Positions 28,032 through 58,405 of a stretch of 64,000 nt of DNA are shown piece after piece. A model generated the notes under the pieces. It did not search any database. It was given only the letters and a program-made list of their open reading frames with translations, and was not told where the DNA came from. This stretch comes from a virus (Duplodnaviria > Caudoviricetes), in the IMG/VR virus record IMGVR_UViG_3300029928_000009, positions 1 to 64,000 of that record; one strand, 5' to 3'. Made by a program: the position numbers and the translations under genes. Position 1 is the first letter of the stretch, and each line of letters opens with the position of its first letter.

Positions 28032-31000
28032 ATGGGTGGAGATAAATTTGACCAGCTATACAATGCGCTAAAAGCAGATGGCGCAGTGTCAGGAACGAGA
28101 GAGAATTTTAAGAAATTCGTCTATGCTCCGGGCAAACAGGGTTATCAGAACAGATTGCAGCTGTATAATGCCCTTCATGCAGATGGGGCGGTATCAAGTA
28201 AATCTTATGAGGAGTTTGCACAAAAGATAGGACTGCACGCAGTAAACAATACAAAACAGCCAACAGCTCAACCTCGGAGCAAGGCTGCACAACAGGCGGT
28301 GGCTTATAAGGCTCCGCAAGTGCCGGAGAACTTTGGCACTCTTGATACGACGACAGCCGGGCAATCTTGGCTGCAAAGACAGAACAGCGAGAGCAAGCCT
28401 GTCAACAGAATAAATGTGGCAAAAGATACACCGGTTGATGTTACATCGAGAGTAACGGGTAAGCAAGGTAAAGCCCCACGTGTCGTAAAGCATAATAAAA
28501 ACGAGTTTTTCACCCAAACCCAATTAGGGGATAGTGATTTGGCTCTTGACTATGGATTTGAGGGGAGAACGCAAAAGGTAGAGGATGACAAGAAAAGAGC
28601 CGCAGCATTGTTGCTTGACCAGCTTACAAAATCAGACTTTGACGAAATAGACAAACTCTATGCGCAAAAGTCTGGCAAACTTTTCGGAAAAGGCATGATT
28701 TCCGGGATTACTACCGACCCAAATGATGCTATGGGGACAATGCTTGGCTCTATGCGTGAGGCAAGTCAGAAGTATGGCACAGATGCAATAATAGCTGCAT
28801 ACAACAAAGCGATTCCTTCGATATTCAGTAACGACAGTTCCCGTAAGGCAATACTGGAGCAGTCAAAGAAACTCGGAATGGACCCAGATGTTTTTGTTCA
28901 GCAATACATGCTCCCAAATATTGAAAAATCAATTCATGACCGACTCGTCAAGCAGCACATGCCAAAGTCTGATATGGATTACGTCATGAGGGGAGTTCTC
29001 AATGGTGTTGGAGGAAATCTGTTTACTCGCGGCGTCATGACAAAGACAGGAAGAGATATAATGAATGAAGGACATGAAAAATATCTCTCGAATATTGAAG
29101 AGCGTATAAAAGATGATGGAGTGTTTAGTAAGGCTGGAGTAGCCAAGTATGGTAACACGACCATGGGAATGGCATCTGATATTGCCGCGTTTGCTGGAGC
29201 CGGAAAGATTGCAGGCGGAATGATGTCCGGTCTTGGTACAGGTGTAAGCTTACTAACAAATACACCACTCGGCAAGCGACTTATTGGCGGTGCGATAACG
29301 TCAACAAGCAAATTGGTAGAGAAGTATGGTGTAGAGGGGGCCGCGAGAATAGCAAGCTTTGTTGGAAATAATAAAACATGGCTGGGCACGATACTTACGG
29401 ATGGCGCAAAAGGAACATTAAGAAGCGGTCTTACCCTTGGTAACTATGGCGCAATGCAATACGTTACAGGTGAAGGATATGACAAGGCGGAAAGTGGTGA
29501 TACGGATAATTGGATCGGCGGTCTGTTTAATAGTTATTCGGATGAATTTAAGACAGGTCTGAAGTTTGGTGTTGTTGGGGCTGTCGGCTCGACAATAGGA
29601 CGTAACGTCGGAATTACGGGAGCGGAGACAAGTAACCTTCAAAGAATAAAGAATGGAATAAAGAAAGCTTCCGTTTCAACAGGAGCCTTTGTTGCAGAGA
29701 GCCTTGCCTTTAGGTCAGACCAAATAGCAGAAGAATGGGCGAAGGATCATAAAATAAACTTCATGGACAACTTTATCCAAGGAGCTTGTGAGAATATGGC
29801 AATGAAGTTGGGAAGCGGTCATTATAAACAATTTAGTCCGAAGAATATTCTTCGTAGCATGACGATGGCTGCTGGAGATAAGAGCCTAAAGCTTACTGAT
29901 ACAGAGAAGAGGATATTCCTTGAAAATACAGATGCAAGAAACCTTGTTGAGGCATGCGAAGCGTTGGAGCCAAACCATAAGACACAGGGTGAAGGTCTTG
30001 CTTCGGAAAATACTTCCGGCATGAAGTATAAAGACCGTGTAGCTGTTGTAAATAAAAAACAGCGAGACCTTTCGGCAAGAGATGCGCAGGGTAATGCCGT
30101 TGGCAAATTGCAGCAGTTCCTTGACAACAAAGAAATACCTTTGAAGTTGAGGATGAAAGTTTCTGCAGCACTTGGTGGAACAATGGGAACAAAAATACCA
30201 AGAGCAAGCAGAATAGTTATTGAGCAGGGTGCGAACGGCAAGAATATCGTAAAGGAGTATGCCGAAGATGGAGAATTGATAGATGCTAAGGAACACTCCA
30301 CTTATGGCGGTGCAGAGGAAGATAGACAAGAGCGCTATCTAAGAAGACAAGACCGCGATTTTAAAGACGAGTACTTAAACGCTATGGACGTTACCACACA
30401 GGAAGACATGATGTCTGTAATGGAGCTTGTAGCCAAAGATAACGGCTTTGACAGCATACAGGATATGATACATGAAAGCGCTTTACGGAACTCACAGGGG
30501 GACGATAGTCTTGACAAAAAGATAAAGGCAGACTATAAGAAGCGAGGCGAGGAATACGCTGGTACTAAAGCCAAGAGGGTGCTTGATATTCAGAGAGCAG
30601 TCAGTGAAGAATATAAGGTAGACCTTGACAAGGCTATGGACAAAGATTTCATGCTAAGGACGGATGAGGAGAATGAAGCCATAGACGAATTCAAAAGGCG
30701 CTTACGCGGAATGAACACCGACAAGAACGATGAGGCGCAGAACAAAGCTGTTGCACACCAAGACGGAGCGGACTTGTCGGAGCAGACGGAGTTGGAGGAT
30801 AGCGAGAAGTTTACGGAGAACGCAAAGACTGTGAACGACAGACAAGCATCTGCAACGGCAGCTTGGATGGAGATGGTGAAGAACACTCCGGAACTGGAAG
30901 AGTGGATGAAGAATAATCCAGATGCTACCGTTGAGGAAATGCGTGATAACTTCGGTGATGATGTTGCTGATGCCTATATGGAACTGAGCAAGGCGAAGTC

Positions 31001-34000
31001 TATGAAAGACGGTTTCATCCAAAATACTTCGCAGAAGATAGAGGATGCCGTGCAGAACCAAGTGGCGCAGGCGAGGTTTACGGGAACTATGCAAAACAAG
31101 CAAGGTGCCAAAGTTGCGACAGATAACACTGTTACTATTTTTTCAGACAAAGACGGGAATGAATATACTCTTGTTGGTGGAGATGTAATTGTTGATACGG
31201 CAGGAGACGGTTCGTATAGCGTCGGGAAGTCGGGGCTTGTGATATTCCGTGATAAAGACGGTAATACTGTTCAACGTACAAACTTTGACGGTCTGACCGA
31301 AGTCGGGACACTGTCGGCAGAGGATTATGCCAACCGCGTTCGCACGACCTTACAGGAACGGAAGACAGCCGAGATACAGAGTTCTGAAACGCCATTGCCG
31401 GAGGTTCAGAAGGAAGAACCAAAGGGAGAGAAGAAATCTGACGAACCTAATGGTGAGGGCGAGTCTTCACACAAGGAAGAGGACGAACCATATAAGATAG
31501 GCGATGAGGTAGAGTTGCGTGATGTCCTTTTTGATGGAGAAGATACAGATAAGACAAGAAAGTACAAAATTGTCGGCTATGATAAAGATACCAAAAGATG
31601 GAAAATGGTAGGTCCTGACGGTATCGAAACTCTCAGTGCTGAAACGTCATATCTTGACGATAATATCGTTAAGCCGAACAAAAATGTTCCTCATGGGCGA
31701 AAGATTATTACACACCATTTAGACATGCTTGATAAGGCGGAAAGTCCGGAGGAAAAACTCAATGCAATAAGCGCAATAAGGAATAATGTAAAGAATGGCG
31801 GTATAATCACAACCGAGGAACAAGCCAAGGTAAACAAGATAGAGCAAGAACTCAAAGAGCAAGGCTATGAAATCGTAGACTTGACAGGCAAGGAATATAA
31901 CGGAGGTGAAAAGGTTGAAATTTCACAAAGTATATCCGTTGAACCCGGCGACCCATTATATGACAAACTTGAAGACGGACAGACTATTATCAAATCTGTG
32001 CGAAAACCGCAGATAATGAAAGATGGAAAACTCTACCGGTCAGCAGAAGTAATAACTGCAACAAGAGAGGACACATCAGTATCAACAGTTTTGTATGACG
32101 ACAAACTTGTGCTTGGCGGTATACAAAAAATTAAGAATCCAAGTGAGACAGTCCTAAAACGGATAGACGACTTGAAGGCGGAAATCTCCGAGCTTGAAAA
32201 GAAGAAAGCTGAGGAATTGAAGAAAACCGATAACAACAATGAAACGGAAGAGGAAATTCCGAAGTTCAAGGACGGAACGGCGGTTCCGATGAATGAGAAG
32301 GGAGAGCCGGACTTTAGCAAGATGGCACCCGAACAGGGAGCAGAGCTTTATGAAGAGAACTTCGGTGCTGATGCAGAGAGTACGCTTGCGAACGAAAGGA
32401 AAGCAGCAGAGAAAGCCTTGAAGGACGCCAACAAGATGAAGATAAGCGGTAGCGGTTGGAGTGAAAAGGTGAAGGCAAAGAAAGAGAAAGAAGCAACAAT
32501 AGCGGCAGCACAGGCAGAGATAGACAGAGTAGACGCTATACAGAAGGCACTGACAGCAAAGAAAGTTGAGGGAACACTTGCTGCAAGCAAACCGGAAATC
32601 GCAGATGGCGAAGAGGCTAATACGGCAGGAAGTGTTGCTGCTGAAAAGTTCCAGAAAGCATCAAAGGTTGTTGGCCGTAAAGGTTCACGGACACTTGCGG
32701 ACGGAACGAAGATAAAGGGAACATATATGATTGTTCCGGCAGAGAGCCTTACTGCAAGCCATGATGCGACAAACGGCTATAAGAAGAGCGAAGGCTTCCC
32801 TGTGAATGAAGAGGGCAGAACAATCAACGACAGAGATTATGAGCACGATAAGGATGCACAGGATGTAACTGAGCAGATGAGTGCCAAATATGACGGACAG
32901 GCTGTAAACCAAGTTCCAACGGTAAGCGATGAGGGAATTGTTTATGACGGTAACGGCAGAACAATGGCAGGACAGCTTGCAGCAAAGAAAGGCACGGACA
33001 AGGAATACATCGAAGCCTTGAAAGAGAATGCAGAAGCATTTGGACTTACAGCCGAAGATGTAGACAAGATAGAGCACCCGAGAGTGATATTCGTGCCGGA
33101 CGAACGATTGCCATACGACACGGAGACCTTTGCGAGGTTCAACAGGAATGAGAAGAAATCACAGAGCAATACGCAAGAGGCTATTGCCAACAGCAAGAAA
33201 CTGTCGGCAAAAGATGTAGGCGCAATCATTAGCGAGATGGAGAGTTCGGGTAGTTTGGATAGTTTCTTTAACAATCCGAAAGCAATAAATGAACTGGTAA
33301 AGACGTTAGTAGAGAAAGGTGTAATCGGTCAGAACGAAGTTGCCGGACTTATGGATGGAGATCTGATGTCAGCAAAAGGCAGGGAGTTTGTACAGAACCT
33401 CTTGCTTGGTGCGGTATTCAAGGAGGACACCTTAAAGATGATGGGTATCGAGAAAGGCTTGAAGAGCAAGGCTCTCAACGCTATGCGTCAGATTATGGAC
33501 AACGCGAAGTTGGGTGAGTATTCTCTTAGAGAAGAAATAGACAAGGCTGTCCAGTTGCTTTATGAGGCAAAGAGAAAAGGCTACACCGTAGACGGTCTGT
33601 TACGACAGCCGGAAATGTTCGGAGAGTCAGCATCGGAGCGTTACCCGATAGAGGTGCAGATAATGGCAAAGGCACTGGAGGGCAAGGTCGCAGACTTCAA
33701 GGAAATCATGGAGGCTTACAACCGGAATGCACAGGCATACAATACAGGTGAGGTAGACATGTTTGGCGATAAGCCTACAAAGGAAGAGTTTATTAACGAG
33801 ATATTAAAACTTGAAAGTTGGAAGAAGTATGACACAAGAAAAGAACAACAAGCCGAGCAAGGCACAGTTGATGATGGCAGCACTAAAGGAAGTGAACCGG
33901 AGACACGAGGAGATAATGAAAAAGGAAAAGGAGGAGTAAAGCTCGAAGACCCATCCAATGCAGAGGAGGGACTAAGGGCAAATGCCGAGGCATACAAGAA

Positions 34001-37000
34001 AGAGGAGGCAAAGGAAGAGCAACCACCTACCGATACTGGAACGAAGAAGTGGGAGGATATGACACCCGAAGAAAAGGGCAAGGAGGCAGACGAACACCCA
34101 CTTACTGAGGAGGAGATACGGAATGGGGCGAGTGAAGAGAATCAAGAGCTTGTAGCGGCGGCAATAGCCTACGTGGACGGCGACAAGAGTTTATTAAACC
34201 AAATAGCTTATTTAAAAATTTACGGAGATGTTAGGAATCGACATGAGAATGTTCCCGGCAATAGCGGAACAGAAGACGGAACACAGTTGGCTGCAACCGA
34301 TAATGGAAGCGGCAACGGATTGGAGCTGGAGCCAGGACGAGGCAGCGGAGGAGTTGCTGAGCCAGTGGATAAAGGAGCAGGCGGAGAAACTGCACCCGGA
34401 GAGCCAGAGAGCGGAGAGAATGGTGAGGGAGGTGCTAATCCTCCTGCTGGAAAACAAGGCGATAGCCAAGGTGAAGGAGGAACACCCGGAGTGGGCGGAC
34501 TATCTGCCGGAAGTACTAAACCCGAAGGAAGCGGCACAACTGGCGGCAAGGGAAGTGTGGGCAGAGGAGGAAGACGAGGAGGCAGCGGAGGACCTTCTAA
34601 GTCAGATGCAAAGCGGAAGCCTACAGCCAAGCAAGGAACTATCTTCCCGGATAGCAAAGGGAAAGATGTAAAGAAAGAAACGAGCGATGCAAAGGCAGCG
34701 ATGAAAGCAGCCTTTGCTAAGTTCAAAGAGCTAAACAAAAAAGATAAAGGCAAATTGTCTTCGTCATTATTGTTTGGTTTGGAGAATAAAATACCGACAG
34801 CAGAAGCACTTGAATATCTGCCCGAAGTAATGAAAGCCACAGGGCGGTATGGAATTGCCGTAATGCGAGAGGGCATCTACAAGGCTAAAGAATGGTTTGA
34901 CAGTGTTCGAGAGGCTATATCAGACGATATGAAAGACTGTGGCTTTTCTGACGAAGATGTGGATGCTTTCATAAGAGAGATGTGGCACATGCCTTGGACA
35001 ATGGACGGTGAGACCCATAAGATAGGCGAGTGGTCGAGCATCTACGGATATTCCACACTGAGAAGCAAACTGAAAGAACCACTGAAAAAGAAATTCGATG
35101 CACAGGTACTTGCCGAGCCGACAGAAGTAAAGGTTGGCGACAAGAAGAATATCGAGGAAACCTTGCCGTTCCTTTTGCCACAGCAGCAAGACGATGTGCT
35201 GAGAGCCGAGACGCAGTTCTTTGACGAGAGCCACAAGGATAAAGCTCACGCTGGAGGCAAGGGGTATATGTTTACCAACGGCACGGAAACAGGAAAGACC
35301 TATACTGGATTAGGCATCGTAAAGCGAATGGTGAAACAAGGAAAGAAGCGAATCCTTATCATAACACCAAGTCAGGCGAAAGTAACCGACTGGAAGAATG
35401 ACGGAAAGAACCTGTGCCTTGACATCAGAGACCTCGACGACTGGGCAAAAGAACATGGCACGACAGCGACGACGGAGAAAGGCGAGGGTGTGGTGATAAC
35501 GACCTTTGCCAATTTTAGAGCCAACAAGTCATTGCTTGAAGACCAGTTCGACATGGTTGTATATGATGAGAGCCACAGAATCATGGAGAACAAGAAAGGT
35601 ATAGATACCGAGGGTAGCAGGCAGCACTATATGCTGACGAACAGGAATGAGGACTATGCCTTGATGCGTCTTGAAGAAACCAACGAAGACTGGCAGAAGC
35701 TGAAAGGTCTTGCCGGGGACTTTGACAATGCAAGAAAGAAAAAGATAAACGAGATAGAGGAGCAGTACAGAAAAGAAAATCCAAGTGCAACGGACAGAGA
35801 CGTGAGGAATGCTACACAGAAGTTGTACCCAAAGGATATGAACAGCTTTAGCGTAGCAGAGAAGCAGAAGTTTCCCGAGTTGGGCAAAATATATGATGAT
35901 TACATTGCAACCATCAGTCATTATGAGACAGACGTAAAGCCGGGACTTGTAGAGCAGGCAAAGAAATCGGTAGACGCGACAAAGGTAGTATTCCTTTCTG
36001 CGACACCATTCAATTCAAGAGAGAATATAGAATATGCCGAGGGCTACTTGTTCTCATATCCCGAGAGGAACGCTATGGGACAGAGCGGCAAGATGCAGCG
36101 ATGGAGGGAGAAGATGGGCGAGACCTACGACAAGTACTCCCAAATGGAAAAGACCGAACAGAACGGCGATAAGCAAGCCGTGTTCGGAGAACTGAAAGAA
36201 CTCGCATGCAAGCTTGCCGGAATGACCGAAGATGAAATGAGGAGGTATCTGACATCGAAGAATAGCAAAGGCTATGACGATGGAGGTGTGAGGTTTAGAA
36301 TGGAACTTGGCAAGACTTTCTCTGATTCAAAGGAAGATTTTGACGGTGTTAGAGATAGAGCTGTGGAAGAGAAAGGTATCGTAATGCCTAACCTAAATAA
36401 GGAAAGCGTTAAGGTTGTGTCTGTGGAGAAGCATAGGTTCGGTGAAGATGTAGGCAAGATGCTTGATAATGCGGAAGAATGGGCAAAGTCTAATCTTGTT
36501 ACAACGGACAAATCAAATTTGCCAACAATGCGTGATGGCACACCTTATACTATAAGTAAGAACGCTATCGATAAGTATTTGTCTTCAAGTGCCACAAAAA
36601 AGAGCGACAACCTTGGTGTTCATCTTTCTGTTCTCCCAAATCTTAAAGATGTTATCCATGAAAGCATCGAAACCGAGATACACCCAGATTATAACAAGGG
36701 TGAAGACGGAAACCGAAGCATAGGGAATGGATATGGAAATAATGTGTTGGTTCATCGTTTGTATGGTGCCGTGAAACTTGATGGTAAAATTTATCGTGTA
36801 AAAACGACCATGCAGGAGTTTAGAGGCGGCGAAGAGAATAAGCCTCACAGCTATGAGGTAACAAGAATAGAGCTGTTGGAAGGCTCTGAGGCAGCGAAAG
36901 AATCCGACAGTCTCCATGTGAGCAGGACAACCAACAACTCTATTTCTGCTGCAAAGTTACTAAATGGAGTTGGAAAATCCTACGATAAAGGGAAAAAACT

Positions 37001-40000
37001 TCTTGACGAGAGTAAAGATTTAGCAGATGGAGAGACACGTTTCCGCAAGGACGAAAGCGAAAATGCCACGAGCGGAGAACTTACTCCACGCGAGAGAGAG
37101 CAGCAGGAGCAGATGGAGAAGCACAGAGCCACTGTTCTGAAAACTACCGAGAAGCTGAATACCAGAACTACAATCCACGACAGTTTGGAGGATATTGAGA
37201 ATGAGACAGTGCGCAAGGCTATCGAGAATGGCGAGAAGGTAAAGGCTTGGTATGATATGAAGACCGGGGAAGTTCATCTGTATCTGCCGAACGTAACCGA
37301 CAAGTATGATGCACAGAAGAGTATAGTGCATGAAGTTGTAGGACACAAGGGAATGAGAAATCTCCTTGGCGAAAGCGGTTATAGAGACATGATGCGCAGA
37401 ATGTATACCCACCTTAGCGCAGAAGAAGCAGCCGAAGTGAATGAACGCATGATGAAAAACGGCTGGGACTTCTATACCGCAATGGACGAGTGGGTTGCAG
37501 ACAAGGCAGAAGAAAGCGTGTGGACACCGCAGGAATATCCGAAGTATATAGGATTGAGCAACCTTTGGAGTCATATCAAACATTATGTTACCGAGGCAAT
37601 CCATAAGGCTGGATATAATATCAACCCGAATGTGGACGATGTGAAGTACTGGCTTTGGGAGAGCAAGAGAGCTTTGCAGAATGGCGATACCTATACCGAG
37701 ATGAAGAGAAACTCCTTCCTTTGGAGATTAAACCACGGCACAGGAAAAGAAACACTTGACGATGTTATAAATTCGCCTGCATATAATCACGGTGATGCAC
37801 AAGAGAGTGTGAGATACCGCAAGGAAACCAGTGATGATGCAATGATAGAAGAGGCTAAAACACTTTTCCGCAAGGGTAGCCTTGATTACAGCAAGAACGA
37901 CACGCCACAGGAAACGGCAACAAAGGATGCCATAGAGCAAAGACTGGGCAGTTGGCAGTACCGCGAAACCGAAGCGTGGAAAGACAACATGGCAAGTCTG
38001 GACACGACACAGAAAGAGATGAGCAAGAGCATAAAGAACTTTGATTCATCAATGGACGTGTATCACGGAGCAATAAACCAAAGTTCGGTAGTAGCCGAGA
38101 AGAGAGCCAACTTCGAGAGAAGAGAGCTGAAGGACCTCCAGCAAGCACTAAGGAAGCCAACCAAAGCACTTGGAGGCGGAGAAAGAGGTTATGAGAACGT
38201 GAACATGTATATCTACATGAAGAGTGGACTGGAGAGAAACCGTGTGCTGCTTGTAAGAGATGTAGCCAATAATATAGATACGAGGATAAAGAAGTTCAAT
38301 GCCGAGCTAAGGGAAAACGATCCGAAAGCAAACGTGATAACCTTTACAGGAATAGAGCAGTACAGGGATGAGTTCCATGCCGAGAAAGACTATCTTACCA
38401 CATTGTTGGAGCAAGGGCAGATAGACCTGCACCAATACTACGACAAGCTCGACAAGTTTATCAGAGACTTTGAGTTTACGAAGACAGGCGACAAAGCGGT
38501 AGACGCAAAGATAGACAAGCTGAACAAATGGTATAAAGACAGTGTAGCCGACAAGTACGATCCAAATGGAAACGACTATTCGGGAATATCGTCAATCGTG
38601 CAGTACAGAGTAAACGGACAGTTCAGCGACAGCGCAATCATAGATGCCGTGATGCAAGCAGAGAATACAATCGGAATAGACGATGTTGAAAATCTATGGT
38701 CGGCAGTAAGAGGAGTAACCGGATATGCACTGGAGAGCGACCACAAATATGGAATAGTAAGCAGTGCAGCCAAAGACAGAGCCAAGGGAATGTTCAACTG
38801 GTATATTCCGATGCGAGGATTCAAGGAAGACTCAATGGAAGACAGCTACGCATATATGCACAGCGATTCAAACAAGCTTGCAAGTTCAAGTCTGAAAACC
38901 GCCAAAGGACGAACAACCCTTGCACAAAGTCCATTAGGCACAGCAGCAGCAATGGCAGAAAGGGCAATATCAAGAGGCGAAGACAATGCCAACAAGCAGA
39001 GAATGTATCGCCTTGCAAACGCATGGCTGAAAGAACATACAGAGGAAGACGGTAATGGCGGTATGAGACTGACCGAAGTCCCTCCAGTAATGGTGAGCGA
39101 TGTCTGGTACGAGAAGAAATACGACAGCTTGGGAAATGAGTATTGGGAAGTAGCCACCCCCGACATAAAGCCTGATATGAGTGCAGAGGCAATCCGCAAA
39201 GAGATAACCGACTTCGAGAACGATATGAAAGCCAAGCAAGCAAAAGGCGGAGCAACAAAGACCCTGCAAAAGGGGGGTTATGCAAAGCCGTTTGAAGACC
39301 CGATGCACAAGAAGCAGAATATCGTTACCGTATGGTTCGGAGGCAAGCAGAGACAGATAATCTTCACAGGTAATCCGAGAGCAGCGCAAGCACTGAACGG
39401 AGAGTTGAAGAGTGATGAACACGGTAACAGATTGATGCGATTTATGGGAAGCATGTTTACATCGTATAACGTAACCTTCTCCGTAAGTAATCTTAGCCGC
39501 GATACATTATTTGCGAATAACAATATCTCGATAAAGGAAAACGCAGAGTATTATGCAAGGTTCACGGCAATGCAGGCAAGACTGTTGGGCGGACAGACAA
39601 TAGGGATGCTAACAGCTAACGTACACGAGAAAGTACGTGGTGAATACTTCAACATGTGGGCACATTACAAACAAGGCAAAGCTCCAAAGGGCGACCTCGA
39701 AAAACTGTTCTATGAGTTTATGGACAATGGCGGTAAGACCGGATTTGTAAAGACAAAGACGATAGACAACTTCGAGGACGAGATAAGAAAGAATGCCGGA
39801 GGACGGAAAGCCATGGAGACAGTAGGCAAGGTGTTACATTCTCTACCCGAAGTAATCGAAGGTCTGAACGAAAGAGCTGAAAACCTAAACCGCTTTGCTT
39901 GCTACGCCACAAGTCGCAAGATGGGAAGAAGCATAATGAGAAGTATCACCGATGCGAAAGAAGTAAGCGTAAACTTCAACCGCCGAGGTTTGGGGGCAAA

Positions 40001-41183
40001 AGCCTTTGATGTGCCGGGGGCGACATGGATAGAGAAGGCTTTTGTAGCAAATGCTGCAAGATGGTGTAGAGGTAGCTATATGTTCTTTAATGCTGGAATG
40101 CAAGGCTTGAGAACTTTACAGAAGAATATGGTAAAGCATCCTATAAAGACAACGATTAACATGATAGGAATACCTATGGTACTGGGCGGCTATCTTATAC
40201 CTTTGCTTAACCAAGTCTTGGCAGGAGACGATGGCGAGAAGTATGCAAGTCTGCCGGAGTGGGAAAGAAGGAATAATTTCTGCTTCTACCTTGGCAAGGA
40301 CAAATGGTTGAAGATACCATTGGCAATAGAACTAAGAGCGTTCTACGGGCTTGGCGATGTTGCAAGAAGTGTAGAAGACAAGAGATTGCAGTCGGCCAAT
40401 AATATATGGCTCGATGCCGCTGCACAGCTAACACAGATACTCCCGGTAGACTTCATGGGAGAAGGCATGAGCCCTGTAAATGCAGCAGTGCCAGATTATG
40501 CAAAACCAGTGTGGCAAGTAGCCAATAATGAAGACTGGACTGGTAAGCCGATATATAAGGACTACGATTATATGAAGTACGATCCCGAATATCTGAAGGT
40601 ATATGCAGGTGAGTTCGAGCCATTTGTAAACCTCAGCAAGTTTATAAACAAGGCTTCGGGTGGAACGGCAGTAACAAAAGGTGATTGGGACGGAAAGTGG
40701 AACAATCCTGCGATATGGAACAACATCGTGCAAGGTTATTTCGGTGGAGCAGGAAGTGATGCAACCCGAACCGCAAAGATAGTCAAGAGACTTGTTACGG
40801 GCGACTGGGACGGTTTCTCGACAAGAGAAGTACCGATGGTAAGAGCCATGTATAGCACACCGACAGAAAAGACTGTTTATTACAGAGGTCTGAGCAAGTA
40901 TGCCAAATACAAGGAACTCTCCGACAAGTACGACCACGACATGAGAGTATGGAAGAAGAACCAGGATAACCCGGAGATAAGCATGAAGTATAATGCGGAG
41001 CTACATGGCAACTCATTAGACAAGCGGATAAATGCGTTAATCAAAGAAAACGAAAAAGTGTTCAAGAAATGCCGCAAGATAATCAATAGCGGAGAGTTGA
41101 GCGACGACGAGGCGAAAGCCATGCAGATGCAAATGGATAAAGCAAAGTTGGATTTGGTAAACGAGATTGACAATATGAAATAA
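28032..41183 (+). CDS. 4383-aa large polyvalent (DarB-like) virion-injected protein: DdrB/ParB-like, partial SF2 helicase, LPD3-like, zincin peptidase, LPD38-like domains
   Basis: YDGNGRT (about 32943); TNGTETGKT, DESH and SAT (35274-36005); HRLYGAV..GKIYRVKTT (about 36750); HEVVGH (37329-37346); VNFNRRG...FFNAGMQG (about 39970-40100). Confidence 0.85.
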   Translation: MGGDKFDQLYNALKADGAVSGTRENFKKFVYAPGKQGYQNRLQLYNALHADGAVSSKSYEEFAQKIGLHAVNNTKQPTAQPRSKAAQQAVAYKAPQVPENFGTLDTTTAGQSWLQRQNSESKPVNRINVAKDTPVDVTSRVTGKQGKAPRVVKHNKNEFFTQTQLGDSDLALDYGFEGRTQKVEDDKKRAAALLLDQLTKSDFDEIDKLYAQKSGKLFGKGMISGITTDPNDAMGTMLGSMREASQKYGTDAIIAAYNKAIPSIFSNDSSRKAILEQSKKLGMDPDVFVQQYMLPNIEKSIHDRLVKQHMPKSDMDYVMRGVLNGVGGNLFTRGVMTKTGRDIMNEGHEKYLSNIEERIKDDGVFSKAGVAKYGNTTMGMASDIAAFAGAGKIAGGMMSGLGTGVSLLTNTPLGKRLIGGAITSTSKLVEKYGVEGAARIASFVGNNKTWLGTILTDGAKGTLRSGLTLGNYGAMQYVTGEGYDKAESGDTDNWIGGLFNSYSDEFKTGLKFGVVGAVGSTIGRNVGITGAETSNLQRIKNGIKKASVSTGAFVAESLAFRSDQIAEEWAKDHKINFMDNFIQGACENMAMKLGSGHYKQFSPKNILRSMTMAAGDKSLKLTDTEKRIFLENTDARNLVEACEALEPNHKTQGEGLASENTSGMKYKDRVAVVNKKQRDLSARDAQGNAVGKLQQFLDNKEIPLKLRMKVSAALGGTMGTKIPRASRIVIEQGANGKNIVKEYAEDGELIDAKEHSTYGGAEEDRQERYLRRQDRDFKDEYLNAMDVTTQEDMMSVMELVAKDNGFDSIQDMIHESALRNSQGDDSLDKKIKADYKKRGEEYAGTKAKRVLDIQRAVSEEYKVDLDKAMDKDFMLRTDEENEAIDEFKRRLRGMNTDKNDEAQNKAVAHQDGADLSEQTELEDSEKFTENAKTVNDRQASATAAWMEMVKNTPELEEWMKNNPDATVEEMRDNFGDDVADAYMELSKAKSMKDGFIQNTSQKIEDAVQNQVAQARFTGTMQNKQGAKVATDNTVTIFSDKDGNEYTLVGGDVIVDTAGDGSYSVGKSGLVIFRDKDGNTVQRTNFDGLTEVGTLSAEDYANRVRTTLQERKTAEIQSSETPLPEVQKEEPKGEKKSDEPNGEGESSHKEEDEPYKIGDEVELRDVLFDGEDTDKTRKYKIVGYDKDTKRWKMVGPDGIETLSAETSYLDDNIVKPNKNVPHGRKIITHHLDMLDKAESPEEKLNAISAIRNNVKNGGIITTEEQAKVNKIEQELKEQGYEIVDLTGKEYNGGEKVEISQSISVEPGDPLYDKLEDGQTIIKSVRKPQIMKDGKLYRSAEVITATREDTSVSTVLYDDKLVLGGIQKIKNPSETVLKRIDDLKAEISELEKKKAEELKKTDNNNETEEEIPKFKDGTAVPMNEKGEPDFSKMAPEQGAELYEENFGADAESTLANERKAAEKALKDANKMKISGSGWSEKVKAKKEKEATIAAAQAEIDRVDAIQKALTAKKVEGTLAASKPEIADGEEANTAGSVAAEKFQKASKVVGRKGSRTLADGTKIKGTYMIVPAESLTASHDATNGYKKSEGFPVNEEGRTINDRDYEHDKDAQDVTEQMSAKYDGQAVNQVPTVSDEGIVYDGNGRTMAGQLAAKKGTDKEYIEALKENAEAFGLTAEDVDKIEHPRVIFVPDERLPYDTETFARFNRNEKKSQSNTQEAIANSKKLSAKDVGAIISEMESSGSLDSFFNNPKAINELVKTLVEKGVIGQNEVAGLMDGDLMSAKGREFVQNLLLGAVFKEDTLKMMGIEKGLKSKALNAMRQIMDNAKLGEYSLREEIDKAVQLLYEAKRKGYTVDGLLRQPEMFGESASERYPIEVQIMAKALEGKVADFKEIMEAYNRNAQAYNTGEVDMFGDKPTKEEFINEILKLESWKKYDTRKEQQAEQGTVDDGSTKGSEPETRGDNEKGKGGVKLEDPSNAEEGLRANAEAYKKEEAKEEQPPTDTGTKKWEDMTPEEKGKEADEHPLTEEEIRNGASEENQELVAAAIAYVDGDKSLLNQIAYLKIYGDVRNRHENVPGNSGTEDGTQLAATDNGSGNGLELEPGRGSGGVAEPVDKGAGGETAPGEPESGENGEGGANPPAGKQGDSQGEGGTPGVGGLSAGSTKPEGSGTTGGKGSVGRGGRRGGSGGPSKSDAKRKPTAKQGTIFPDSKGKDVKKETSDAKAAMKAAFAKFKELNKKDKGKLSSSLLFGLENKIPTAEALEYLPEVMKATGRYGIAVMREGIYKAKEWFDSVREAISDDMKDCGFSDEDVDAFIREMWHMPWTMDGETHKIGEWSSIYGYSTLRSKLKEPLKKKFDAQVLAEPTEVKVGDKKNIEETLPFLLPQQQDDVLRAETQFFDESHKDKAHAGGKGYMFTNGTETGKTYTGLGIVKRMVKQGKKRILIITPSQAKVTDWKNDGKNLCLDIRDLDDWAKEHGTTATTEKGEGVVITTFANFRANKSLLEDQFDMVVYDESHRIMENKKGIDTEGSRQHYMLTNRNEDYALMRLEETNEDWQKLKGLAGDFDNARKKKINEIEEQYRKENPSATDRDVRNATQKLYPKDMNSFSVAEKQKFPELGKIYDDYIATISHYETDVKPGLVEQAKKSVDATKVVFLSATPFNSRENIEYAEGYLFSYPERNAMGQSGKMQRWREKMGETYDKYSQMEKTEQNGDKQAVFGELKELACKLAGMTEDEMRRYLTSKNSKGYDDGGVRFRMELGKTFSDSKEDFDGVRDRAVEEKGIVMPNLNKESVKVVSVEKHRFGEDVGKMLDNAEEWAKSNLVTTDKSNLPTMRDGTPYTISKNAIDKYLSSSATKKSDNLGVHLSVLPNLKDVIHESIETEIHPDYNKGEDGNRSIGNGYGNNVLVHRLYGAVKLDGKIYRVKTTMQEFRGGEENKPHSYEVTRIELLEGSEAAKESDSLHVSRTTNNSISAAKLLNGVGKSYDKGKKLLDESKDLADGETRFRKDESENATSGELTPREREQQEQMEKHRATVLKTTEKLNTRTTIHDSLEDIENETVRKAIENGEKVKAWYDMKTGEVHLYLPNVTDKYDAQKSIVHEVVGHKGMRNLLGESGYRDMMRRMYTHLSAEEAAEVNERMMKNGWDFYTAMDEWVADKAEESVWTPQEYPKYIGLSNLWSHIKHYVTEAIHKAGYNINPNVDDVKYWLWESKRALQNGDTYTEMKRNSFLWRLNHGTGKETLDDVINSPAYNHGDAQESVRYRKETSDDAMIEEAKTLFRKGSLDYSKNDTPQETATKDAIEQRLGSWQYRETEAWKDNMASLDTTQKEMSKSIKNFDSSMDVYHGAINQSSVVAEKRANFERRELKDLQQALRKPTKALGGGERGYENVNMYIYMKSGLERNRVLLVRDVANNIDTRIKKFNAELRENDPKANVITFTGIEQYRDEFHAEKDYLTTLLEQGQIDLHQYYDKLDKFIRDFEFTKTGDKAVDAKIDKLNKWYKDSVADKYDPNGNDYSGISSIVQYRVNGQFSDSAIIDAVMQAENTIGIDDVENLWSAVRGVTGYALESDHKYGIVSSAAKDRAKGMFNWYIPMRGFKEDSMEDSYAYMHSDSNKLASSSLKTAKGRTTLAQSPLGTAAAMAERAISRGEDNANKQRMYRLANAWLKEHTEEDGNGGMRLTEVPPVMVSDVWYEKKYDSLGNEYWEVATPDIKPDMSAEAIRKEITDFENDMKAKQAKGGATKTLQKGGYAKPFEDPMHKKQNIVTVWFGGKQRQIIFTGNPRAAQALNGELKSDEHGNRLMRFMGSMFTSYNVTFSVSNLSRDTLFANNNISIKENAEYYARFTAMQARLLGGQTIGMLTANVHEKVRGEYFNMWAHYKQGKAPKGDLEKLFYEFMDNGGKTGFVKTKTIDNFEDEIRKNAGGRKAMETVGKVLHSLPEVIEGLNERAENLNRFACYATSRKMGRSIMRSITDAKEVSVNFNRRGLGAKAFDVPGATWIEKAFVANAARWCRGSYMFFNAGMQGLRTLQKNMVKHPIKTTINMIGIPMVLGGYLIPLLNQVLAGDDGEKYASLPEWERRNNFCFYLGKDKWLKIPLAIELRAFYGLGDVARSVEDKRLQSANNIWLDAAAQLTQILPVDFMGEGMSPVNAAVPDYAKPVWQVANNEDWTGKPIYKDYDYMKYDPEYLKVYAGEFEPFVNLSKFINKASGGTAVTKGDWDGKWNNPAIWNNIVQGYFGGAGSDATRTAKIVKRLVTGDWDGFSTREVPMVRAMYSTPTEKTVYYRGLSKYAKYKELSDKYDHDMRVWKKNQDNPEISMKYNAELHGNSLDKRINALIKENEKVFKKCRKIINSGELSDDEAKAMQMQMDKAKLDLVNEIDNMK

Positions 41184-52912: not shown

Positions 52913-55900
52913 ATGGCAGATGAAAAGAAATATTTAGACAAAACAGGACTGACGAACCTTGTAGGGAAGATCAAGTCCGAGTTATCAAAGAAGGCGAATA
53001 CGGAAGACGTTCAGCCAAAGGGTGAGTATGCTACATTAGTAGATGGAACAGTTCCGGCATCGCAGTTGCCGAGTTATGTTGATGATGTTGTGGAATTCAG
53101 CGGCTTTACTTTAGGGGAAGTATCGGCTAAGGCAATGAGCACCACGAAAACATCGCAAGATCTACTGTGTAGAGTGCAGTATGTTGCCAAAAACAATGTC
53201 TTTGTCTTTTATGACGGAAAGGACTTTTATAGTAATTGGGGCGACGCAAATACATGGGGAACTCCGACTACTGGGACATTTACCGGCATGTTTACAACTG
53301 GCGGTAGACAACCCGAATCCGGGAAAATCTATGTTGACACGACTACGGGGAAAACATACCGATGGAGTGGCAGCAGCCTTGTAGAGATAAGTGCAAGCCT
53401 TGCCTTAGGAGAAACAAGTGAAACTGCATTTGCCGGAGATAGAGGAGTTGCCGTTGAAAAGAGTTTGGAAACAGTCAAGTCCGAGTTATCAAAGAAGGCG
53501 AATGCGGAAGACGTAGAAAGTCTAAGCAATGACGTTAAGGTAAACACTGCATCACTGGAAGCAAAAAGTGTAACCTCTATAAGCACTAAAATGGTGGGCG
53601 ATGTGCTAAATATTGTTGCAACAAAAATAAATGGAGATGAGGCTACGTCATATGTGAGACCAGCAACAACAGGTACGACCGGGCTAATGAGCGCTGAGGA
53701 TAAAAACAAACTTGACAATACAATATTTGAAGAAGACAAGAGACAGATAGCAGAAAAATCCCGAGTTGAAACCGAGACCTCTCGAGTTGCAGCAGAACAG
53801 AGCCGTGTAAGAGCGGAGAACGAAAGAGATACAAATGAAGATTCACGTGTTTCCGCCGAACAGACAAGAGAGCAGAGCTTCACCACCAAGGTCGGGGAAG
53901 TGGACACGGCTATCAAAAACTGCAACACAGCTACCGAGGGAGCGGAGAGGGTGGATGCCACCATTACCGAGGCTAACGTGCTGCAAGTTACCGACAGGAA
54001 CGGAACACAGAAAACTCTTGACCTTGCTGCCGTGGTTAAGGCTAACTCTGTGGCGGAGGATGTGGACCGCATAAAAGAAAGTATGGGTGCATACAGCGAC
54101 AGACCGGATATTACGCTCACCGCAAAGGAGAACAACGTGGCTATATCGACTGACGGAGTGAAGGTGAGCAAGAGCGGTTGGGCGATTGCGGAGTTTACGG
54201 CGGAAAAGGGCAATGAATATCTTTTCAAGCCGAATGTGATTGACGGAAGCGTGTGCATCTTTGCCGAGAAAATAGACAAGGTGGAGAAGCGCGGTATCGA
54301 CTACACGTATACCTACAACGAGAACGGAACGATAGCAACGGCAACGGCTACATACTTAGGCAAGACGCATATCTATACTTATAGTTACACAACCGCAGAT
54401 AGCGGAGCAACAGACGTTGCAATTACAGATGAAACGGGGGCTGTTGTAACGGAACTGCCTTATCAATATCTTACCACTGTCGGCTCGTATTCCCCCCTCG
54501 TCAGACTTAATGCCGGGGCAGAATTGCCGAAAGACGGGTATTGCCGTTTTATGAGCCACTTCCAGGGTAATAATTCCTTGAAGGTCGCTGTGTCGTACAA
54601 GGTGGGCACGGCAGACCTGACAATGAAGGTGGTACGTGATGGTGTGATGGCAAGCATCTCGACGCAGCTGGGCAATATTTCGCAGAAGGAGAATGAAACG
54701 CGCTCGCTTGTGATGGACTTGAAAACTGCCGTAGATACATTCGTAGACAAGGATGGCTATGTGGGCATGGCGCGAATGAACGGCGATGCGAGCGGCGATG
54801 CGGAAACGACATACGGCACGGCGGAGAAAATTCACACTATGGGAGCGAAGTTCCGTCTGTGTACGGTGAAGAACGGCAAGATTACCCACCGATGCGCTCC
54901 GGGCAGACTGACGCTCGACGAGAACGGCGAGGAGGTGAAGATTGACGGAACGGACGGAGATGTGATGCTCTGCGTGGAGGATGGCTTGAACCTGCTGAAA
55001 GCCACAAAGGATATTGGCGGAAGGGAAATGAACATCATAGGTATCGGCGACAGAAAGTCTGTATGGTATGGTGTTCAGTCAAAGGAGATTCCTGCCTTTG
55101 GTTTCACACCTTGCGCTACGGTGAACGCTAAAATCCTTGACGATGTGCGCTCACAGGCTCACTGCGTGTACAATACAACAGCAATGGGTTCATACGCTAA
55201 TGCTTTGGATTATAAGATATTCAAGGACGTATACAAGAAGAGCGGTGGCGGATATGCATCCAAGCAGTTCTCTTCCGTTCTGAATATCCAATATGCACAA
55301 AACAAGAACGAGGACAATCTGACGTGCAAGCCTTATATGGGACTGCACTTCGAGTATATGGAATGTTTGCTCGCCATGATGTTCTCTGAGATAGGAAGTG
55401 TGTGCCATACCAATCTTGACATGTTCGGCGTGGGGATAACCAACAACACGATGAGCGCAAGTCTTTTCAATGACGATGCCATAAGCGGTGTGAGCGGATG
55501 GAAGTTCATTACGGCTGACGGAACGGAAAAATATCAGAATTGGTGGACAAATGTATATACAGGTGGACAGACAGCGACTGCCACCGAATTGGTAAGAGGT
55601 ATTGTCGGCAACGACAGATACTTGTGTGTGGAGATGCTTGAAGCGCAGCGTGTTCTTGATGCCGTAATGAAAGCAGGACTTGCTGACAGGATAGGAAGCA
55701 AGAGCAATATATTCCACTATGACGAAAACGGGGATATGGTATGCACGTCTGACGGAAGCGTGAATCTTGACACAGGCGAGGGCATGGAAGCGTGCAAGCA
55801 CTACTTCGTGATACGCAACGTGCCGAGATGCGAGGGGTTGGCGGACGGTGTGATGACTGCCGTGATAAATTCATACACCAAGTTGGAGTGTTGTGATGGT

Positions 55901-56476
55901 TTGGTTTTGAACGACAAGACAACGGATATGACAGGCGGAATAGCAATCATGAAGAGAAGCCTGCCTATATATAGAGGCTGGACGTTACCCTATATCGGAG
56001 TGTTCCGCCACTTGAACTATGGCTACTACGTGATACGTGTAGATACCGAGGGCGTGGTGGATGTGGAATATGATGCCATTGAAGTAAAGGACGTTAAACC
56101 GCTTACGGTGTTAAATAACACCGCTTACGAAGCATCAGGCAAGAATAGCACAGTTCCTATGCTTGAAGGCGCGTCAAAGGTTTACCAAGTGGGCAAAGGC
56201 TCAGGTCTTAATGGCGAATTTTGGACAATGAAGAGCAACTACTCCATGGGTTTGTTCTGTTTAAAACAACGAGGCGGAGGATTTAGAACGCATGAAAATG
56301 CGTATCTGTGGCTATATTCAACGAATAATCATGGTAATGATAGTGTACAGGTGCACGGCTCCGTTTCGGGTTGCTCTGCGGATAGTGGTCAGGCGTCTGT
56401 TCGGACTGCGTCTTGTTTCAACTACGCTGGCTATGGCTTTGTCAACTACGCTGGGGCGTTCGCTGTCCAGCTATAA
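52913..56476 (+). CDS. Tail fibre/receptor-binding protein, DGR target
   Basis: Fibre modules (GTVPASQLPSYVDDV, GLMSAEDKNKLD, coiled-coil shaft); last 40 codons form the DGR variable repeat. Confidence 0.9.
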   Translation: MADEKKYLDKTGLTNLVGKIKSELSKKANTEDVQPKGEYATLVDGTVPASQLPSYVDDVVEFSGFTLGEVSAKAMSTTKTSQDLLCRVQYVAKNNVFVFYDGKDFYSNWGDANTWGTPTTGTFTGMFTTGGRQPESGKIYVDTTTGKTYRWSGSSLVEISASLALGETSETAFAGDRGVAVEKSLETVKSELSKKANAEDVESLSNDVKVNTASLEAKSVTSISTKMVGDVLNIVATKINGDEATSYVRPATTGTTGLMSAEDKNKLDNTIFEEDKRQIAEKSRVETETSRVAAEQSRVRAENERDTNEDSRVSAEQTREQSFTTKVGEVDTAIKNCNTATEGAERVDATITEANVLQVTDRNGTQKTLDLAAVVKANSVAEDVDRIKESMGAYSDRPDITLTAKENNVAISTDGVKVSKSGWAIAEFTAEKGNEYLFKPNVIDGSVCIFAEKIDKVEKRGIDYTYTYNENGTIATATATYLGKTHIYTYSYTTADSGATDVAITDETGAVVTELPYQYLTTVGSYSPLVRLNAGAELPKDGYCRFMSHFQGNNSLKVAVSYKVGTADLTMKVVRDGVMASISTQLGNISQKENETRSLVMDLKTAVDTFVDKDGYVGMARMNGDASGDAETTYGTAEKIHTMGAKFRLCTVKNGKITHRCAPGRLTLDENGEEVKIDGTDGDVMLCVEDGLNLLKATKDIGGREMNIIGIGDRKSVWYGVQSKEIPAFGFTPCATVNAKILDDVRSQAHCVYNTTAMGSYANALDYKIFKDVYKKSGGGYASKQFSSVLNIQYAQNKNEDNLTCKPYMGLHFEYMECLLAMMFSEIGSVCHTNLDMFGVGITNNTMSASLFNDDAISGVSGWKFITADGTEKYQNWWTNVYTGGQTATATELVRGIVGNDRYLCVEMLEAQRVLDAVMKAGLADRIGSKSNIFHYDENGDMVCTSDGSVNLDTGEGMEACKHYFVIRNVPRCEGLADGVMTAVINSYTKLECCDGLVLNDKTTDMTGGIAIMKRSLPIYRGWTLPYIGVFRHLNYGYYVIRVDTEGVVDVEYDAIEVKDVKPLTVLNNTAYEASGKNSTVPMLEGASKVYQVGKGSGLNGEFWTMKSNYSMGLFCLKQRGGGFRTHENAYLWLYSTNNHGNDSVQVHGSVSGCSADSGQASVRTASCFNYAGYGFVNYAGAFAVQL
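52971..53514 (+). repeat. 40-bp direct repeat (39/40 identical) flanking an in-frame 504-bp fibre module
   Basis: 52971-53010 vs 53475-53514. Confidence 0.85.
56350..56467 (+). repeat. DGR variable repeat (VR)
   Basis: 118-bp ungapped match to TR; 15 mismatches, all opposite TR adenines. Confidence 0.96.
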
Positions 56477-56632
56477 TCAAATTTAAATCGAGAGTAATAA
56501 ACATTAACAATAACAATAAACCTCAAGCTGCGACTTAGCAAACAATGGGTTTTGGCAAAGGCAATGGCTTCAAATCGGATGCAAAGGGGCGAAACGGCTT
56601 AGTGTAGCCCCGGTCCGGGCGGCAAATTAAGA

Positions 56633-58405
56633 ATGAAGAAAAATATTCACATCATACAGGAAAAGAGAAAAACTTTTGCACCTCGGGATCTTAATTCCGG
56701 GAATGTCGGTGTGATGTGTAAGGGAGTGAATCCTCCCAAAAGCGAAGGTGGGGAGAACGGCTCCGTTTCGGGTTGCACTGCGAATAATGGTCAAGCGTCT
56801 GTTCGGACTGCGAATTGTAACAACAACGCTGGCAATGGCAATGACAACTACGCTGGGGCGTTCGCTGTCGATAAGGATATAATGAAAGGAAGCCCCACAT
56901 CGCGAGCAGCAAGCTCAAAGATTAAAGACAGCCATACCGCCACAGGTGGGTATGGGCGGTGCGATTACGACTCGTTGCCTTTTATGGGTGATGAGAACAA
57001 AGCGGAAAGCAACGCAACGGCTACCGATATGGATGCCGTAATGCAAGAATTGAAGACAGCAAACAGAAAAAGGAAGCTGAAAGGCTTAAAACGTTTCTTC
57101 ACTAACCGCCTGCTGATAGAGTATGCTTTTGACAGGACGATGGAAAGGACAAACTCCAACACGTCGCTTTATATAGCAAAAAAGAAAGAAATCTGCGCCC
57201 GTCTGCGAAAGGAACTCACCGATATGACATATACCCCCGGCGATAGCCACAGGAGAGTGATACACAAGAAGGGAAAGGGTGATAAGAAGCGAAATGCAGA
57301 CATCTACCCGATGTATGACAGAATAGTTCAGACACTGATACTTATCGTGATAGAGCAGAAATTCCGCAATATGATGATAAGGAATATTTATTCCGGAATA
57401 GAGGGAAGAAGTCTGTTGAGTAACGACCGCCGATATTGTATGGTAAACAAAATACGCCATTGGGTTAAGACACATCAGGGCAAGTGGGTGGGTCTTACTG
57501 ATATTCACCATTTCTATGAAACGCTGAAAATGAAAGTCGTACTCGGCGAAATGTTCAGCGTTATAGTATGCCCATATACACGGTGGCTACTATTGTTGGC
57601 TTTCAGCAAGACGGAATATCTGCCGATAGGCGGATGCCTTAGTCAGATAATGGCAATGTTTACAGTTGTTTCGGCAGACAGAGAACTGCTGCGGAGATAT
57701 AACGTTGAGCTTTTCTGTTTTGGCGACAACAGGCTTATCGGCGGAGCAAAGGCGGAAGTTAGAGAGGCTATGAGCTTTCTGATGTCATATTACGAAAGCA
57801 GGTACGGACTAAGTGTTAAGTCTGATTATCAGATGCGTAAGGTGTCTGACGGGTTCCGCTTTTGTAAATATGACTATAAAGACAGTTATGTGCATGTGAG
57901 AGCTGAAATAAGAAGAAGGGCGATACGTGCATGGAAGCAGGGCAAACAGCATTATGCAGGGTATAAAGGGATGTTGGATAAGACCGACAGCAAGAGGTTG
58001 GAATATCTAATAGAAAACAGATATATGGAACTGGTGAACAAACACGGAATGACCGTGAGAACACAAAGAGGAGATAAAGTGAAACTCCGTGATTTGGCGA
58101 ATGGCAGCGAGATTGTTCCTGTGGAATATTCAATAGAGCCATCTGAAGCTAAAAGAAAAGAAGGACGCGACGGAAATATGGTAAGGCTTACATATATCCA
58201 TCTTCTCAACGGGACAAAAAGGCTTTGTCATTCCACGGAGGGGAGCGAAGAAGTAGTAGAGTTCTTCAAGCTTGTTAAAGACGGAATACAGGAGCTTCAT
58301 CAGCGTTTGCACGTAAAACACGACGGAACAAAAGCTTATTTCGAAGAGTTCCATACAACTAAAGAAGAGGCATGTGAATTAATTTGCAAAAAATTAGGTA
58401 TATGA
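56633..58405 (+). CDS. DGR reverse transcriptase (true start probably 56882 or 57029); FGDN in place of YxDD; C-terminal extension
   Basis: YDRIVQ, YSGIEGR, LTDIHHFYE, LPIGGCLSQ (DGR IGxxxSQ), FCFGDNRL, GFRFC. Confidence 0.9.
   Translation: MKKNIHIIQEKRKTFAPRDLNSGNVGVMCKGVNPPKSEGGENGSVSGCTANNGQASVRTANCNNNAGNGNDNYAGAFAVDKDIMKGSPTSRAASSKIKDSHTATGGYGRCDYDSLPFMGDENKAESNATATDMDAVMQELKTANRKRKLKGLKRFFTNRLLIEYAFDRTMERTNSNTSLYIAKKKEICARLRKELTDMTYTPGDSHRRVIHKKGKGDKKRNADIYPMYDRIVQTLILIVIEQKFRNMMIRNIYSGIEGRSLLSNDRRYCMVNKIRHWVKTHQGKWVGLTDIHHFYETLKMKVVLGEMFSVIVCPYTRWLLLLAFSKTEYLPIGGCLSQIMAMFTVVSADRELLRRYNVELFCFGDNRLIGGAKAEVREAMSFLMSYYESRYGLSVKSDYQMRKVSDGFRFCKYDYKDSYVHVRAEIRRRAIRAWKQGKQHYAGYKGMLDKTDSKRLEYLIENRYMELVNKHGMTVRTQRGDKVKLRDLANGSEIVPVEYSIEPSEAKRKEGRDGNMVRLTYIHLLNGTKRLCHSTEGSEEVVEFFKLVKDGIQELHQRLHVKHDGTKAYFEEFHTTKEEACELICKKLGI
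56752..56869 (+). repeat. DGR template repeat (TR)
   Basis: AAY-codon-rich copy of VR, 402 bp downstream; 27 adenines. Confidence 0.96.

Follow-up and report, generated by a model that had tools for sequence, protein, structure and literature searches.

We identified a diversity-generating retroelement (DGR) in a 64,000-nt stretch of the Caudoviricetes virus record IMGVR_UViG_3300029928_000009 (positions 1 to 64,000; hereafter the window), whose reverse transcriptase (RT) reads Phe-Gly-Asp-Asn-Arg (FGDNR) at the catalytic motif C. Very probably, this is a working DGR of a temperate gut phage that uses an RT of the FGDNR lineage to vary the last ~30 codons of the gene for a tail-fibre-like protein of 1187 aa. 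Sequence comparison indicates that, by function, the element is a recently active DGR: it has a pair of template repeat (TR) and variable repeat (VR), an adenine bias, a DGR-type RT and signs of recent activity. Feature positions are collected in Table 1.

Ungapped comparison of VR with TR gave 15 mismatches in 118 nt and no indels, with all 15 mismatches at TR adenines, reproducing the 15 adenine-only substitutions in 118 bp reported in the initial annotation. TR contains 27 adenines in its 118 nt, many of them in AAY codons, and the 15 that are changed in VR became T (10), G (3) or C (2). If mismatches fell at random, the chance of all 15 hitting an adenine would be 0.229^15, or ~2.5e-10 (about once in 4e9). 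The first or second codon position of the target open reading frame (ORF) is affected by 14 of the 15 changes, and VR ends 9 nt before the stop of that ORF. Because the mismatches at 56352 and 56354 are the same in the window and in the related loci L027-L030 and lie at the 5' edge of the homology, we regard these two as fixed edge differences. At the 3' end, an A-free, GC-rich segment of 18 nt (56450-56467; GCTGGGGCGTTCGCTGTC) is identical in TR and ends sharply at 56467/56869, resembling an initiation of mutagenic homing (IMH) element; the shared segment holds no IMH/IMH* difference. Folding directly downstream of VR detected no significant structure (z = 0.31) and no Bordetella-like hairpin right after the IMH-like segment, and a conserved GC-rich hairpin lies 119 nt downstream of VR.

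The N-terminal part of the target protein matches PHROG families of virion structural proteins and of unknown phage proteins, and the target gene is flanked by a 382-aa ORF and a DUF4376 tail-fibre-like gene. Searches of the target protein against Pfam and NCBIfam, which bear on the C-type-lectin-fold or Ig-like domain typical of a VR, gave no match, and an Atlas feature search with its C-terminal part returned only scores of 0.86 or below, with a faint FGE-sulfatase lead and nothing usable.

Related loci carry the same signature of adenine-directed change. VR lies about 400-525 bp upstream of TR in 24 of 24 IMG/VR loci that encode a member of the RT clade described below. When a Bacteroidaceae metagenome-assembled genome (MAG) is added to these, 25 related loci reach VR, and their TR and VR differ by 7-20 mismatches that are A-only or almost A-only. 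Among 17 pairs of loci with TRs at least 98% identical, the VRs differ at 9-23 sites, nearly all of them TR adenines; between L007 and L008, whose flanks are 99.7% identical, 15 of 15 VR differences are at A. Moreover, a 5.2-kb contig from another sample (L030; ENA ERZ26858441) encodes an identical 590-aa RT; its TR (118/118) and 400 nt of flank on either side also match the window exactly, yet its VR differs from the window VR at 17 positions, all TR adenines. The same element with a different VR shows that VR has been rewritten in this element after the two copies separated. Only one RT is encoded in the 75-kb phage.

The RT ORF scores 29.8 bits against Pfam RVT_1, with a cut-off of 29.6, and also matches PHROG 1423 'reverse transcriptase'. 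A single-sequence search of this RT against the Protein Data Bank (PDB) gave no match and a profile was needed; with a profile of 32 homologues, the Bordetella RT (bRT; PDB 8ub7) was the best PDB sequence match, and aFGDnRlig aligned with RYMDDIVVL. The AlphaFold model of the RT (predicted local distance difference test, pLDDT, of 80-97 in the core) likewise has bRT as its best match by target-normalised TM-score (0.76); the model also matches group II intron RTs, DRT9 and retron RTs, and one RT relative is labelled group II intron protein in GenBank nr. Together, the profile alignment and the structural match to bRT equate the F, G, D and N of this motif with the Y, x, D and D of YxDD, respectively. 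The codons TTT GGC GAC AAC at 57719-57730 encode F363, G364, D365 and N366, and translation also bears out the other two motifs named in the initial annotation, LTDIHHF and LPIGGCLSQ. D290 in motif A, D365 and N366 are, from these alignments, likely to be the catalytic residues. A catalytic pair elsewhere in the protein was considered and rejected: D349 corresponds to the structural Asp of bRT (AVDRLL), and each column of FGDN has its counterpart in YMDD. The RT thus departs from the canonical YxDD box, which is a property of RTs generally and not part of the definition of a DGR.

The altered motif is shared by a whole lineage. A word-indexed search yielded 358 relatives, the best 120 of which were analysed (100% down to 45% identity, all about 560-670 aa), and FGDNR is invariant in 120 of these 120. 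An exhaustive HMMER search of 1.84 billion representatives returned 32 proteins at E up to 1e-30, in which every clade representative covering the motif has FGDNR with the sole exception of P0133, which has YGDDR. The five motif codons vary synonymously among loci (TTT/TTC, GGC/GGT/GGA, GAC/GAT, AAC/AAT, and CGN/AGR for Arg). An invariant FGDNR combined with synonymous codon variation indicates purifying selection on the amino acids and an Asn that is ancestral and maintained. Divergence of the RT core between close pairs, 0.042/0.026/0.192 at codon positions 1/2/3, also indicates strong purifying selection on the protein.

In a FastTree phylogeny of 103 RT cores, which is midpoint-rooted and approximate, the 15 FGDN representatives and P0133 form one clade with a Shimodaira-Hasegawa-like support of 0.997. 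The FGDN lineage is monophyletic, and clustering at 50% identity divides it into at least 15 groups. An FCDD pair is sister to it (support 0.97), and both belong to a wider group that also contains xADN, FTDN, YADD and FADD. The next relatives outside this wider Asn/Phe-variant group are canonical DGR-type RTs with PIGNYxSQ and YxDD, and the remainder of the tree consists of canonical DGR RTs (PIGNYxSQ, Y[ACM]DD). The residue after motif C is an invariant Arg in the FGDN clade and I, M, L, V or F in canonical DGR RTs; the resulting shift in local charge, about +2, hints at a remodelled metal or primer-terminus environment. The lineage is large, old and apparently undescribed, with FGDN as its conserved hallmark. 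The initial annotation had preferred a divergent, active, non-canonical lineage and had proposed aligning homologous RTs for conservation of FGDN; that alignment (FGDNR in 120/120 of the best 120), the synonymous codons and the A-only VR changes support its preference.

Several relatives show further variation at these motifs. P0133, on a 1.8-kb contig (L031; Logan SRR30347329), is the only YGDDR member and is nested inside the FGDN clade, either as a double reversion (F to Y and N to D) or as a singleton artefact. The contigs of P0133, P0140 (FTDN) and P0152 (FADN) are too short to include a VR. In an FGDN subclade (P0123, P0127-P0132), motif B ends in LSP and not in the DGR-typical LSQ; a GxxxSP motif together with a normal YxDD has been described as odd in the DGR RTs of epsilon crAss-like phages (PMC11054128). 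The contig of the FCDD sister P0139 (L034:360-1829) begins in an apparent VR 3' end, 15 nt of which are identical to its positions 485-499, and the corresponding TR end falls inside the RT ORF; from this layout, the placement of TR within the ORF seems older than the change to FGDN. A different phage DGR (L036:902-1371 and 1566-2870; ENA ERZ13405075) encodes an RT, P0159, with YADN at motif C, aligned where bRT has YMDD and the GsI-IIC RT has YADD. The 16 mismatches between VR and TR of this DGR all fall at TR adenines, and a 67-aa ORF, called separately from the RT and lying upstream of it, holds the TR. RTs near P0159 read FADN, YADN, YCDN, YNDN or FTDN at motif C.

In the window element, TR lies within the RT frame, a placement that the initial annotation does not mention. 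Reading from an ATG located 41-85 codons before TR, this frame stays open through TR and a spacer of ~50 codons into the RT domain in 27 of 27 loci from about seven lineages, despite indels and a leader divergence of 56-59%; across the same region of these loci, the two other frames have 1-24 stops. These observations bear on an alternative that we consider unlikely, in which the RT start lies unrecognised just before the folded domain, at about codon 131, the upstream frame is untranslated, and TR stands upstream of the gene, in the manner of ordinary TR-RT cassettes. In its favour, codons 1-130 lack a protein-type substitution pattern: divergence by codon position between close pairs is 0.050/0.061/0.026 in the leader and 0.039/0.031/0.037 in the spacer, and third positions in leader and spacer diverge five to seven times less than those of the RT core. 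Residues 1-130 of the AlphaFold model are also predicted to be disordered (pLDDT below 40), and many loci have an ATG 52-58 codons past TR. However, a late start fits poorly with the frame that remains open in all 27 loci. Three loci (L005, L006 and L011) offer no in-frame ATG in the 70 codons that follow TR, and the residue at the sole plausible internal start varies among homologues (M, F, L, T or Y). Judged by their substitution pattern, codons 1-130 (the first ~390 nt) evolve like a structured RNA, not like a protein.

Covariation supports such a structure. A long-range helix brackets TR and closes it into a loop; pairing in this helix reaches 98.9% across 19 sequences, with compensatory changes in 6 of its 10 pairs, compared with 28-56% pairing in slid controls. 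The two spacer hairpins taken together are 99.6% paired, with 7 of 14 pairs compensatory and slid controls at 22-39%. A search of 56300-57200 against Rfam found no family. The GC-rich hairpin between the target stop codon and the RT start keeps its position in all aligned lineages, while its stems change compensatingly, as judged by eye (GGGGC/GCCCC, GTAGCGGC/GCCGCTAC and GGAGCGGC/GCCGCTCC), and its loop includes GGCT(G)TTAG. No T-tract lies 3' of this hairpin, and a promoter and terminator scan gave nothing exceeding shuffled expectation. The hairpin may act as a terminator or as an element of the target site, or it may form the 5' end of the DGR RNA.

No match to Avd (PF05635) was found anywhere in the 75-kb phage at E up to 1, and the 156 nt from the target stop to the RT start contain no small ORF. 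The RT model has an additional C-terminal domain (residues ~462-590), for which the best structural matches, at Z of 4-5.5, are nearly all single-strand binders with an oligonucleotide/oligosaccharide-binding (OB) fold, such as SSB and PriB.

An Asn at the second position of motif C has precedents in other polymerases. Mononegavirales polymerases use a GDN motif. Among RTs, FGDN forms the catalytic core of the type VI-A RT-Cas1 from Eubacteriaceae bacterium CHKCI004; RT-Cas1 proteins, once purified, showed polymerase activity on poly(rA)/oligo(dT), and an FGDN-to-FGAA mutant of RT-Cas1, the authors' RT-deficient control, lowered spacer acquisition six-fold (PMC11662929). By analogy, the RT-Cas1 precedent and the YADN lineage of P0159 make a catalytic FGDN credible. 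A competing explanation would have the FGDN protein as a catalytically dead, RT-fold RNA-binding cofactor, with a host or co-infecting RT making the cDNA. We give this explanation little credence: D290, D365 and all other RT motifs are invariant, a second RT was not found in the phage, and the RNA elements are embedded in the ORF of this very RT at every locus. In the Bordetella system, moreover, the DGR RT requires its cognate RNA. The explanation draws on the non-canonical motif itself and on the charge shift of about +2 that the invariant Arg after the Asn brings. It also draws on the many DGRs that Bacteroides genomes have of their own (10.1101/2024.11.15.621889), and is opposed by the activity of the FGDN-containing RT-Cas1 (PMC11662929). 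In the weakest alternative, raised in the initial annotation, the RT was inactivated by a recent GAC-to-AAC change, or the Asn is a sequencing error, and a single receptor variant became fixed. The window by itself does not discriminate, and the only point in favour is the general expectation that YxDD needs both aspartates. This alternative is refuted by the Asn in 120/120 homologues (best 120 of 358) and in all full-length clade representatives but P0133 (YGDD), by the use of both Asn codons, by the strong purifying selection on the RT ORF, and by the occurrence of the same RT protein in a second, independent sample, where VR is changed at 17 A sites.

We propose the following mechanism for the FGDN-type DGR. 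The 5' region of the RT mRNA would also serve as the DGR template RNA, as the counterpart of the Bordetella avd-TR-Sp RNA. The FGDN RT would bind this RNA, prime in or near the spacer, and copy TR with misincorporation opposite A; the cDNA would then replace VR, with the A-free 3' segment common to both repeats as a guide. Two-metal catalysis may still work with Asn in place of the second motif C aspartate, as in the GDN of Mononegavirales and the FGDN of RT-Cas1. The OB-like C-terminal domain, the disordered N-terminal extension, or both may replace Avd in nucleic-acid binding. The full combination, in which a phage DGR lineage works with an Asp-Asn-Arg site, without Avd, and with a template RNA that is the translated 5' part of the RT mRNA, is a real possibility that we put forward tentatively.

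A number of points weigh against a working FGDN-type DGR as described here. For HIV-1 RT, both aspartates of motif C are considered necessary, and the activity of the FGDN RT is argued from sequence comparison. A host or co-resident RT acting in trans is possible. VR variation is known from comparison between contigs, and heterogeneity within one sample would be an extrapolation. Translation of the leader-TR-spacer region is argued from frame conservation only, in a segment of low pLDDT that has no protein-type codon pattern. Avd is poorly conserved, and a divergent Avd-like gene could possibly have been missed. The OB-fold likeness of the C-terminal domain, with Z no higher than 5.5, lies below the level of a trustworthy fold match and serves as a lead only.

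The window represents 64 kb of a 75,366-bp IMG/VR record that CheckV rates as complete, and includes an integrase, a portal, a terminase-like gene and a 4383-aa polyvalent protein. The host of this temperate gut phage is probably a member of the Bacteroidaceae; in a scan of 185,579 species genomes, the sole clade member was in one Bacteroidaceae MAG, so the host range is thinly supported. A megablast search with 19 kb of the window matched no GenBank phage, and an RT protein search of 50,697 GenBank phage records found no clade member and only 5 weak matches, at about 24% identity. The polyvalent protein is a single ORF (28032-41183, +) with LPD38, ResIII/AAA_34 helicase, ddrB-ParB and LPD3 domains, and its 4383 codons account for 17% of the phage genome. 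A 145-kb contig (L027; ENA ERZ27271108) holds a 95%-identical relative of the window phage that is apparently integrated in a bacterial contig; beside this relative lie genes for an integrase of Bacteroidota type (Arm-DNA-bind_5, Phage_int_SAM_5) and for an AI-2E transporter, and a HicA toxin gene is located close to the lysis genes.

Table 1 Features of the DGR locus and of the integrase gene, in window coordinates
Feature	Position	Strand	Remarks
Target gene	52913-56476	+	Putative tail-fibre or receptor-binding protein, 1187 aa; VR encodes the last ~40 residues
VR	56350-56467	+	Ungapped comparison with TR; demonstrably varying part ~56375-56446
GC-rich hairpin (GGGGC...GCCCC)	56586-56611	+	Between target stop codon and RT start
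RT ORF	56633-58405	+	590 aa; leader-TR-spacer codons 1-130, RT core ~131-460, C-terminal domain ~462-590
Long-range helix, 5' strand	56742-56753	+	GCGA-AG-GUGGGG
TR	56752-56869	+	In frame within the RT ORF, codons ~41-79
Long-range helix, 3' strand	56893-56903	+	CCCCAC-A-UCGC
Spacer hairpin 1	56904-56916	+	GAGC AGCAA GCUC; 4 pairs, 3 compensatory, 100% paired
Spacer hairpin 2	56932-56955	+	CCAUACCGCC ACA GGUGGGUAUGG; 10 pairs, 4 compensatory, 99.5% paired
Motif A	57500-57502	+	Catalytic Asp, D290 in LTDIHHF, invariant
Motif B	57620-57646	+	LPIGGCLSQ, DGR-type GxxxSQ signature
Motif C	57719-57733	+	F-G-D-N-R, F363-R367; aligns with Y-M-D-D-I of Bordetella bRT
C-terminal extra domain	58097-58351	+	Absent from bRT; model pLDDT 80
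Integrase	14529-15668

YxDD is treated as a universal RT signature and as the site to mutate for dead-RT controls. An active FGDN lineage, as the sequence comparisons suggest, would show that an RT can work with Asn at the position of the second aspartate. If so, Asn arose at least twice in DGR RTs (in the FGDN clade and in the YADN lineage), the second motif C aspartate would be dispensable there, and adenine-specific infidelity could owe something to the altered metal-binding site itself. Homology-based finders of RTs and DGRs may lean on YxDD, and the window RT barely clears the RVT_1 cut-off. DGR surveys may under-count FGDN-type elements; the lineage is abundant in metagenomes, apparently those of the human gut. 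A single RNA acting as both message and template could give cis-preference or translational self-regulation, and the covarying helices offer a concrete RNA model. The compact layout, one gene with its own template RNA and no Avd detected, is attractive for studying adenine-specific infidelity and for engineering targeted mutagenesis tools.

In the literature searched, no paper couples a DGR with FGDN. RT motifs are not discussed in Roux 2021 (PMC8144416) or in the tentaclin paper (PMC10743442), and the former likewise does not discuss a TR inside the RT ORF. The text of Wu et al. 2018, supplementary alignments aside, mentions neither an altered catalytic motif nor a TR in the RT ORF (PMC5758913). 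The A1 DGRs without accessory genes in that study resemble the window element in their target-TR-RT order and in lacking avd, HRDC, MSL and CH1; the study reports 29% of DGRs without accessory genes and one lineage without avd. The DGRs described there differ in a TR stated to be untranslated and in RTs of 300-500 aa (PMC5758913).

The Bordetella phage BPP-1 DGR (mtd-avd-TR-Sp-brt; PDB 8ub7-8ubf) is reminiscent of the window element in its A-specific transfer from TR to VR at the 3' end of a receptor-binding gene. The two share the GxxxSQ motif, and bRT is the best PDB match by both sequence and target TM-score. A structured RNA 3' of TR, with pairing across TR, also likens the window locus to the avd-TR-Sp RNA of BPP-1. 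The window element differs in having FGDNR in place of YMDDI, no detected Avd, and TR and spacer RNA inside the RT ORF; its RT is longer by 130 residues at the N terminus and by about 130 at the C terminus, with a Foldseek identity to bRT of ~20%. The Hankyphage (Bacteroides phage p00) DGR is likewise that of a temperate Bacteroides phage, and its RT accounts for 4 of the 5 weak matches among the GenBank phage records, but it is 24.5% identical over 42% of the query and belongs to a separate RT lineage. Mononegavirales L polymerases are palm-domain enzymes that also work with Asn for the second motif C Asp, after a Gly; they are RNA-dependent RNA polymerases with no sequence relation to this RT, and the likeness is an analogy only. 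The type VI-A/RT2 RT-Cas1 of CHKCI004 has the same FGDN core and RT activity in vitro, but it is a CRISPR adaptation enzyme fused to Cas1 and said to derive from group II intron RTs, and is not a DGR (PMC11662929). Among these systems, the window element is a DGR by function and a distinct variant by its catalytic motif, its architecture and the absence of a detectable Avd, for which the further mechanism is proposed here.

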